DNA from: Dehalococcoidia bacterium
GTDB lineage: Bacteria > Chloroflexota > Dehalococcoidia > Bin125
Assembly: GCA_965242485.1 (NCBI GenBank)
Contig: CBDESM010000002.1
Span: 25,266 to 89,265 of the forward strand
DNA length: 64,000 bases
Direction: 5' to 3'
The notes under the pieces were generated by a model, which saw only the letters and a program-made list of their open reading frames with translations, ran no database searches and had not been told where the DNA came from. The translations under genes and the position numbers were made by a program. Of the stretch, positions 37,767 through 38,878 are shown one piece after another. The number at the start of each line of letters is the position of its first letter. Position 1 is the stretch's first letter.

Positions 37767-38099
37767 GTGCCCCCACAGCGTTTCCTCAACCCCGACTTGC
37801 TAAGAGTGACCGCGCACGCGCAGGATCGAATGGCCGCGCATGGCATTCATGTGGACGATCTGCACGCCGTGTACCGGGATGACCCGGCCCGCATCCCGCA
37901 GAAGCCGAAAGTGGAGTGGCGCGAGGGGAGCGGCCGCCGGATCCGTCCGCGCCGCCTCAGAGTAGTCGGGCGCGACGCGCAGCACCGCTTGCTGACGCTT
38001 ATCATTGAAGGACCGGACGAGAGAGGCGTCACCAGCCTCGTCACTGTGTTCCCGACGGCCAATGACGATGAAATCAACCGATACTGGCAGTCCCGATAA
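37767..38099 (+). CDS. DUF4258-like small protein (putative toxin-type component)
   Basis: AAGGA RBS then GTG. ...LRVTAHAQDRMAAHGIHVDDLHAVY... matches the HAxxRMxxRGI-type N-terminal signature of DUF4258. Only the 3' 333 nt of the long track ORF is accepted. Confidence 0.5.
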   Translation: MPPQRFLNPDLLRVTAHAQDRMAAHGIHVDDLHAVYRDDPARIPQKPKVEWREGSGRRIRPRRLRVVGRDAQHRLLTLIIEGPDERGVTSLVTVFPTANDDEINRYWQSR

Positions 38100-38361
38100 G
38101 CAACACTCGGCTCCGGTCGACGACCCGGATGCGGAGTTCTACGAAGATGACGACAGCATTGAGGTCCTGCTCGGCGATGTGCAGCGCTGGGGCTTCGAAG
38201 TGATCTTCGGCGGCGACGAGTTGGCCCGGCTCGGCCCGATGCACCGCAGCTCCGGGCAAGACACGTTCAGCACCTTCGTCCACGACCTCGCCATGCAGGC
38301 CGTCGCCGACTGGGAAGCAGAACAGGCGGATGAACCCGCTGCAGCCACCGCCGCCGACTGA
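38062..38361 (+). CDS. Small acidic protein, paralog 1 of 3 (putative antitoxin-like partner)
   Basis: MTMKSTDTG...FGGDELARLGPMHRSSGQDTFSTFVHDLAMQAVADWEAEQ. Overlaps the end of the DUF4258 gene. Confidence 0.45.
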   Translation: MTMKSTDTGSPDKQHSAPVDDPDAEFYEDDDSIEVLLGDVQRWGFEVIFGGDELARLGPMHRSSGQDTFSTFVHDLAMQAVADWEAEQADEPAAATAAD

Positions 38362-38398
38362 CCATCAGACAGCCCACCACGGCTTGACGCAACTCAGC

Positions 38399-38632
38399 AT
38401 GACCGACAACCGCGCGATCCTCCCGGCCGAAGATGAAATGCCCGAATACGTCGCGCCGGAAGATCCGATCTTCGTGTTCGAAGTCGAGTTCAGCGGCGAT
38501 GAGGTCGAGCAGCTCGGCCGGATGCTCCGCGACGACGGCAACCCGCTCGTCAACGACTACCTCCGCAACTTGGCGCTCGAAGCGATCCGCTCCTGGGAGC
38601 GGAAGCAACCGGCGGCCACAGTCGCGGACTAG
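38399..38632 (+). CDS. Small acidic protein, paralog 2 of 3
   Basis: MTDNRAIL...FSGDEVEQLGRMLRDDGNPLVNDYLRNLALEAIRSWERKQ. Confidence 0.45.
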   Translation: MTDNRAILPAEDEMPEYVAPEDPIFVFEVEFSGDEVEQLGRMLRDDGNPLVNDYLRNLALEAIRSWERKQPAATVAD

Positions 38633-38650
38633 TCGTCTGCTGGCCATCGC

Positions 38651-38878
38651 TTGACAGATTCACGCATGAACGCCGAGAACGCCCGGCCAGCCGCCGATGA
38701 GACCAGCCTGCTCATCGACATCCGCTTCCGGGGCGATGAAGTTCTGCGCATCGGCCGGATGCACCGCGCCGAGGCAGACGGCAAGTTCAGCGCTTTCGTC
38801 CACGATCTTGCCATGCAGGCGGTCGCCGACTGGGAAGCGGAGCAATCCGGCAAGCCCGGCGCAACCGCCGCCGACTGA
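38651..38878 (+). CDS. Small acidic protein, paralog 3 of 3
   Basis: MTDSRMNA...FRGDEVLRIGRMHRAEADGKFSAFVHDLAMQAVADWEAEQ. The C-terminal 25 aa are identical to paralog 1. Confidence 0.45.
   Translation: MTDSRMNAENARPAADETSLLIDIRFRGDEVLRIGRMHRAEADGKFSAFVHDLAMQAVADWEAEQSGKPGATAAD

Follow-up and report, generated by a model that had tools for sequence, protein, structure and literature searches.

The window analysed here is a 64,000-nucleotide stretch of a Dehalococcoidia bacterium genome (contig CBDESM010000002.1, positions 25,266 to 89,265), which carries on its plus strand, between positions 37767 and 38878, four small co-oriented genes: a toxin-like gene, here called T, and three paralogs, A, B and C, encoding small acidic proteins, here called S proteins. 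The array is flanked by a divergent gene for a KamA-like radical-SAM protein on one side and by a convergent gene for a calcineurin-like phosphoesterase on the other. T (37767-38099) has a GTG start with an AAGGA Shine-Dalgarno sequence 7 nucleotides (nt) upstream and encodes a basic protein of 110 amino acids with an isoelectric point (pI) of 10.3, while A (38062-38361), B (38399-38632) and C (38666-38878) encode acidic proteins of 99, 77 and 70 amino acids with pI values of 4.05, 4.14 and 4.82, respectively. Since the ratios of non-synonymous to synonymous substitution rates (dN/dS) against orthologs in related contigs range from 0.14 to 0.56 (T 0.21, A 0.33, B 0.30-0.56 and C 0.14-0.17; flanking genes 0.06-0.09), the four open reading frames (ORFs) are coding genes under purifying selection and not chance ORFs. 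The public record of the source contig lists exactly these four products with the same starts, all of them unnamed. Thus, the four genes that an earlier, sequence-only reading had picked out, as a protein with an HAxxRMxxHGI signature followed by three acidic paralogs, are real. The same reading had also described partial overlaps between the genes, and this holds for T and A, which overlap by 38 nt in an arrangement that is kept in orthologs, but not for A and B, which would overlap only if B used a longer start at 38330; neither homologs nor public gene calls support that start, and the public call confirms the one at 38399.

The signature of T reads T-A-H17-A-Q-D-R21-M-A-A-H25-G-I. In a scan with profile hidden Markov models (HMMs), the best Pfam match of T was the DUF4258 family (PF14076; E 0.013, 16.2 bits, residues 15-66), so that the family anticipated by the sequence-only reading was indeed the closest one, but at a score below the gathering cut-off of 25 bits. 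DUF4258 was matched by 7 of the 10 T-family members scanned (E <= 10; best E 3e-5), and a precomputed PF14076 match exists for two relatives (P0044 and P0047). The helix motif HAxxR(M), which corresponds to H17-A18-Q-D-R21-M22 in the window protein, is retained in types 2-5 of the five T types described below and is lost in T1 and in the distant relative P0059. The BrnT_toxin family (PF04365; cut-off 34.5 bits) was not matched by the window T in the HMM scan, while three paralogs among the 10 scanned matched it weakly (best E 0.028) and P0059 scored 12.4 bits. An AlphaFold2 model built with 27 relatives (pLDDT 83, pTM 0.75) has a pair of helices at the N-terminus, then a sheet of six strands and a final C-terminal helix, with the fold covering essentially all 110 amino acids, and it structurally matches toxin-antitoxin (TA) toxins of the RelE/BECR fold; two N-terminal helices on an antiparallel sheet together with structural similarity, the features by which RelE/ParE members of this fold are recognised, are both found in it. 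Because of these family matches and the model, T is assigned to the RelE/BECR-fold toxin superfamily, between DUF4258 and BrnT, which agrees with its earlier description as toxin-like. The positions conserved across the T family (P40, R63, G68, R74, L76, I79, E81, T93 and Y106) are located in the sheet and in the C-terminal helix, and we presume that the Arg/Glu/Tyr set among them resembles the catalytic sites of the RelE/YoeB type.

A, B and C are paralogs with 38-49 % pairwise identity and 20 invariant columns, and they have the common pattern F.GDE..(R/Q)(L/I)G(R/P)M.R...L(A).(A)..W.E...Q..P..T.AD. A motif of 17 residues, FVHDLAMQAVADWEAEQ, is identical in A and C. Within this motif, 6 of about 9.7 synonymous sites differ between the two genes and none of the 41 non-synonymous sites does, therefore the identity reflects selection on the protein; a recent gene conversion between A and C is ruled out by the six synonymous differences in 17 codons. 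Moreover, every member of the S family, the most distant included, ends in ...AAD, ...VAD or ...EAD right before the stop codon. These Ala-Asp ends lie at 38350-38361 in A, 38621-38632 in B and 38867-38878 in C, all on the plus strand, and recur in relatives such as P0065-P0069 and the proteins encoded at L010:3336-3572 and L015:4354-4596 (L numbers denote related loci). The conserved free Ala-Asp C-terminus could be a degron or a tail contacting the toxin. The net charge of S proteins is -5 to -18, and the AlphaFold2 model of C has an extended segment at residues 15-22 followed by helices at 24-34 and 40-61, that is, a strand-helix-helix (beta-alpha-alpha) core. None of A, B, C, their 30 close or their 8 distant relatives matched any entry of Pfam, NCBIfam, PADLOC or PHROGs (E <= 10). 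The earlier guess of a DUF2283-like fold is not sustained, as PF10049 was matched by none of 42 family members (E <= 10) and the model of C is helical. The family is small: it forms 32 clusters at 90 % identity among 5.8 billion proteins, a HMMER search with the S profile, run in full against 1.84 billion representatives, gave only 9 clusters (50 % identity), a scan of GTDB genomes found one genome with relatives, and no relatives were present in IMG/VR viral contigs, JGI metagenome contigs or PLSDB plasmids.

In those relatives that had enough flanking sequence and the same neighbours, the array was always found in the same chromosomal slot, although its content differed between them while their KamA-like and aldo-keto-reductase proteins were 93-99 % identical. 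A Dehalococcoidia metagenome-assembled genome (chromosome OZ242037.1) is among these relatives, and the window is thereby assigned to that lineage. By reading the array content with HMM scans of all six frames, we distinguished seven same-slot architectures, the window included. The window has T S S S; L001 has T S S T S T S; L002 and L003 have a T fragment followed by S T S T S; L004 and L005 have T S and then a fused S-S protein; L006 and L007 have T S S S, a frameshifted T and S; L008 has T S, a frameshifted T, S, a degraded T and S; and L009 has T S S S T S. Across these seven architectures there are 24 S domains, and each intact T in the slot (11/11) has an S directly downstream. A further five T remnants, which are frameshifted, fragmented or fused to S, each stand before an intact S. 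Thus, in the loci examined T never lacks an S directly downstream, while S is often solitary or preceded by a T in decay.

Two S genes have called ORFs that begin with toxin sequence in frame. One of them holds one of the five remnants: in L001, the C-type S (P0010, L001:5352-5729) is fused in frame to an N-terminal remnant of the toxin type T5, LRISERAEERMSERD, and in L008 the ORF called as S (P0029, L008:5001-5384) opens with the in-frame toxin fragment MIGFDLQRRLLRV. Internal deletions that took away most of the upstream T left these fragments at the starts of P0010 and P0029. The fused S-S protein in the same slot of L004 and L005 (P0007; L004:5001-5396, L005:1297-1692) has 131 amino acids, with two S domains joined head to tail.

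Clustering resolved five T types, each with its own matching S type directly downstream: T1 is followed by the B-type S, T2, to which the window T belongs, by the A-type, T3 by S4b, T4 by S4a and T5 by the C-type. The distances among T and among S proteins correlate strongly (Mantel r = 0.94, p = 2e-4), in a set of pairs that includes orthologs and is thus not fully independent. The A-type S (S type 2) is always behind T2, in the window, L001, L002/L003, L014 and, as a pair 60 % identical at another locus, L015/16. The B-type S (S type 1) directly follows T1 in L001 and L004/5, follows a T fragment in L002/3, and is an orphan in L006/7, L009 and the window, while the C-type S (S type 3) stands behind an intact T5 in L008. 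Beside B and C in the window we found no toxin remnants, and the junctions before them are only 37 and 33 nt long. Because the B-type S follows T1 and the C-type S follows T5 in other loci, A alone appears to be the cognate partner of T in the window, and B and C are best read as orphans of deleted toxins, T1 and T5, their usual partners, which are absent from the window. In this respect the triplicated cognate partner proposed earlier needs to be divided: the three are real paralogs and behave as an antidote partner would, but the five T/S type pairs leave A as the only candidate cognate and B and C as orphans.

Single T+S pairs were present in two unrelated chromosomal contexts, namely a thiamine (thi) operon in L015/16, where the pair is T2-like/A-like, and next to carB/pyrK in L010, where the pair is distant and its genes overlap by 4 nt. 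Hence, the question of whether homologous loci hold one or several copies of the small gene has two answers: several in the slot, but one, paired with one T, in L015/16 and L010. In every case T and S are co-oriented and overlap or nearly abut. Because of the slot arrays, the pairing of T and S types and these single pairs elsewhere, the unit appears to be a two-gene T+S cassette that behaves as a portable module. Two distant S genes (81 and 79 amino acids) also lie in tandem at L011:66-601, and in L012 and L013, beside genes for Glyoxalase_3 and enoyl-CoA hydratase; no T is visible there, but the L011 contig ends 65 nt upstream and a toxin is possible beyond its end.

Taken together, the predicted toxin fold, the toxin-first overlapping operon, the opposite charges of the products, the co-variation of the T and S types and the fact that T is never found without S lead us to regard the locus, with good confidence, as a toxin-first type II TA module (T and A) followed by two retained orphan antitoxins (B and C). 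Among the features that characterise type II TA systems, these loci have a small, adjacent, co-oriented and portable pair, in which the antidote may stand alone but the toxin may not and the two partners co-vary. From the sequences we infer that T is toxic and acts as a ribonuclease, that S neutralises it by physical contact, and whatever function the orphans may have. T would act as an endoribonuclease that blocks translation by cleaving mRNA or rRNA, and A, translated from the overlapping frame, would bind T one-to-one and mask the face of T that binds RNA or carries the catalytic site. Partner specificity probably resides in the N-terminal half of S, which differs between types, and the conserved beta-alpha-alpha core with the ...AAD tail probably has a common role, be it dimerisation, contact with a conserved toxin surface or a signal for proteolysis. 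The slot, bounded by the KamA-like operon and the gene for the phosphoesterase, is a hot spot in which T+S cassettes are gained, shuffled and decay, the toxins being lost first and the antidotes being kept under selection, perhaps as cross-protection against related toxins.

A number of observations weigh against this interpretation. The window T reaches neither the DUF4258 nor the BrnT cut-off of Pfam, and its profile gave only chance-level matches against PDB sequences. Of the BrnT residue pair K16/H17, as aligned by eye, T keeps the His alone (A24-H25, within an xHG(I/V) motif), and some T types carry Arg at the position equivalent to this His. The S proteins have no recognisable family or fold match, their profile giving only chance-level matches to PDB sequences and their model no structural match, so that their antitoxin role rests on context. 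An inverted-repeat search and a consensus scan at the locus detected no convincing palindromic operator and no promoter or terminator, and PADLOC had no match for the system. Finally, the dN/dS values show constraint on the orphans B and C that equals or exceeds that on the cognate A, a hint that they may do more than persist as relics. A bolder extension, which we consider speculative and rather unlikely, holds that S is a new antitoxin fold and family in which the invariant core, given as F.GDE...G.M.R...F.HDLA..A...WE, and the AAD tail plug the toxin active site or act as a degron, the variable N-terminus confers specificity, and the orphans are kept as population-level anti-addiction immunity against the T types of sister strains. 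If true, such immunity would explain why constraint is stronger on the orphan C than on the cognate A.

The fast change of array content between genomes whose flanks are 93-99 % identical would also be expected if the T+S cassettes formed an anti-phage, abortive-infection island that diversifies under pressure from phages, with orphan S proteins as spare or cross-reactive antidotes, a notion that would be laid over the TA reading and would not replace it. Toxins of the RelE/ParE superfamily do serve in defence (PMC11980606). The GC content, about 0.72 around the array, is about 0.64 within it (0.63-0.66 in 37400-38900, against 0.70-0.745 in the flanking genes, a dip of about 7 points), and some relatives have restriction-modification genes (XamI-like and Eco57I-like) at a second variable spot about 3 kb away. 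However, besides the lack of a PADLOC match already mentioned, relatives are absent from IMG/VR viral contigs, PHROGs, phage-related libraries and plasmids, no mobile-element genes flank the array, and a phage trigger is not known; we think a defence role doubtful. The likeness to polymorphic-toxin immunity arrays that the sequence-only reading had seen would cast T as a toxin tip delivered by secretion or contact, and the three S proteins as immunity to toxins of the cell itself and of others. This we judge very improbable: T is a free-standing protein of 110 amino acids, nearly all of which are spanned by the fold model, with no N-terminal delivery, repeat or pre-toxin domain, and its neighbours encode radical-SAM/KamA-like, CxxCxxCC, DUF429, phosphoesterase, aldo-keto reductase and thiamine-pyrophosphate (TPP) enzyme proteins but no secretion system. 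Moreover, the relatives repeat complete small T+S pairs in tandem and not toxin tips.

The array could alternatively be a family of small regulators, with S as ribbon-helix-helix (RHH) DNA-binding proteins and T as a domesticated RNA-binding partner that is not toxic. The predicted beta-alpha-alpha core of S resembles that of RHH proteins and of the C-terminal RHH of BrnA (PMC11980606), and the intergenic region before the array contains a conserved block. On the other hand, neither A, B and C nor their relatives matched any RHH family (E <= 10), there was no structural match, and the putative strand has acidic or hydrophobic residues facing outward (FEVEFS, FEVIFG), which, with a net charge of -5 to -18, is poorly suited to DNA binding. 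Moreover, T has decayed repeatedly while S was retained, as is expected for a costly toxin. A regulator family is thus improbable, if somewhat less so than a polymorphic-toxin array, and we keep to the reading of the locus as a TA module with orphan antitoxins.

A survey of the BECR fold (2025) lists DUF4258 and BrnT among 13 BECR toxin families of type II TA modules and names DUF4258 as one of two BECR/RelE families without a described member (PMC11980606). By the HMM cut-offs the window locus lies outside both families, and its antidote belongs to no described family. The toxin-first order is known from BrnTA, HigBA, MqsRA and RelS-RelI (PMC13284704), and the partners of Escherichia coli DUF4258 toxins are strictly downstream (PMC10790755), while the survey gives the gene order of DUF4258 modules as A/T (PMC11980606), opposite to that of the window locus. 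With DUF4258, its best Pfam match, T has the HAxxRM motif in common; the partners and fusions reported for this family are MqsA-like (PMC11980606), whereas S is neither MqsA-like nor DUF2283.

The locus probably works like BrnT/BrnA of Brucella abortus or like RelS-RelI. BrnT cleaves mRNA in vitro, and its toxicity depends on K16-H17 and R72 (PMC13284704). In a motif alignment made by eye, the Lys of the K16-H17 pair is Ala in T and the His is present (A24-H25-G-I), and T has R105-Y106 near its C-terminus. T is about 30 amino acids longer than BrnT, with extra strands and a C-terminal helix, and S has no match among BrnA or RHH models. RelS-RelI (Rv2663-Rv2664) of Mycobacterium tuberculosis is alike in having a small BrnT-like toxin first, followed by a lineage-restricted antitoxin outside the known families; RelI sterically occludes the catalytic site, there is no obvious operator, and His, Lys and Arg are essential (PMC13284704). 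We detected no sequence relationship of this pair to T or S, however, and RelI is helix-turn-helix-like while S has a strand and two helices. The RelS target is rRNA (PMC13284704), demonstrated at the 3' end of 16S rRNA; for T, mRNA and rRNA are both candidate targets.

Orphan antitoxins and degraded TA loci are common in surveys of Klebsiella and E. coli, and roles in anti-addiction and cross-regulation have been proposed for them (PMC7192599, PMC10790755). As there, the antitoxin is kept without a functional toxin, often in the same context as intact pairs. The window differs in that its orphans stand in tandem directly behind an intact paralogous pair, and the slot differs in that the series from intact through frameshifted and fused to deleted toxins is found at one place in near-identical backgrounds. 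Compared with the orphan toxin-immunity arrays of contact-dependent inhibition (CDI) and Rhs systems, the locus has no large delivery protein, toxin-tip architecture or secretion genes. What is unusual here is the whole decay series at one slot, the strong constraint on the orphans and the invariant C-terminal tail.

Upstream of the array, the divergent intergenic region contains the conserved block mentioned above (37640-37735, about 95 nt, not assigned to a strand), which recurs in every related locus irrespective of the array gene next to it and whose conservation ends at the array start. Its consensus is …GATCCACGCG…TTAyGTCAACCkCTTATGACACTAGCACC…GCrTCAACGAwyCGTsAAC…, and it matched neither Rfam nor the sigma-70 consensus. 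The block may be a divergent promoter, a promoter shared by the array or a leader for the KamA-like operon, the first gene of which most likely has its start at 37619 (minus strand). Neither tRNA nor Rfam features were found in the window.

The operon itself (32383-37619, minus strand) is conserved and uncharacterised, and encodes the KamA-like radical-SAM protein (CxxxCxxC, with a sub-threshold Radical_SAM match), a CxxCxxCC (YkgJ-like) protein, a DUF429 protein and an 816-amino-acid protein with an NYN nuclease domain; its relatives have one to three DUF429 paralogs, some of them fused to NYN. The second variable spot lies past the TPP-enzyme gene and holds the RE_XamI-like and Eco57I-like genes in relatives (L001:11719-12240, L008:9836-10384 and L002:7972-8308), and in the window (43437-47243) and L004 it holds instead a 629-amino-acid protein of no assigned family and/or a LysM protein.

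The locus leaves the current view of TA systems unchanged. It provides a compact natural experiment, with five toxin types and matched antidote types of an unnamed family in one chromosomal slot of an uncultured Dehalococcoidia lineage, and the system would be useful for studying the partner specificity of TA pairs, what becomes of orphan antitoxins and what the ...AAD tail does, all of which are testable with a few synthetic genes.
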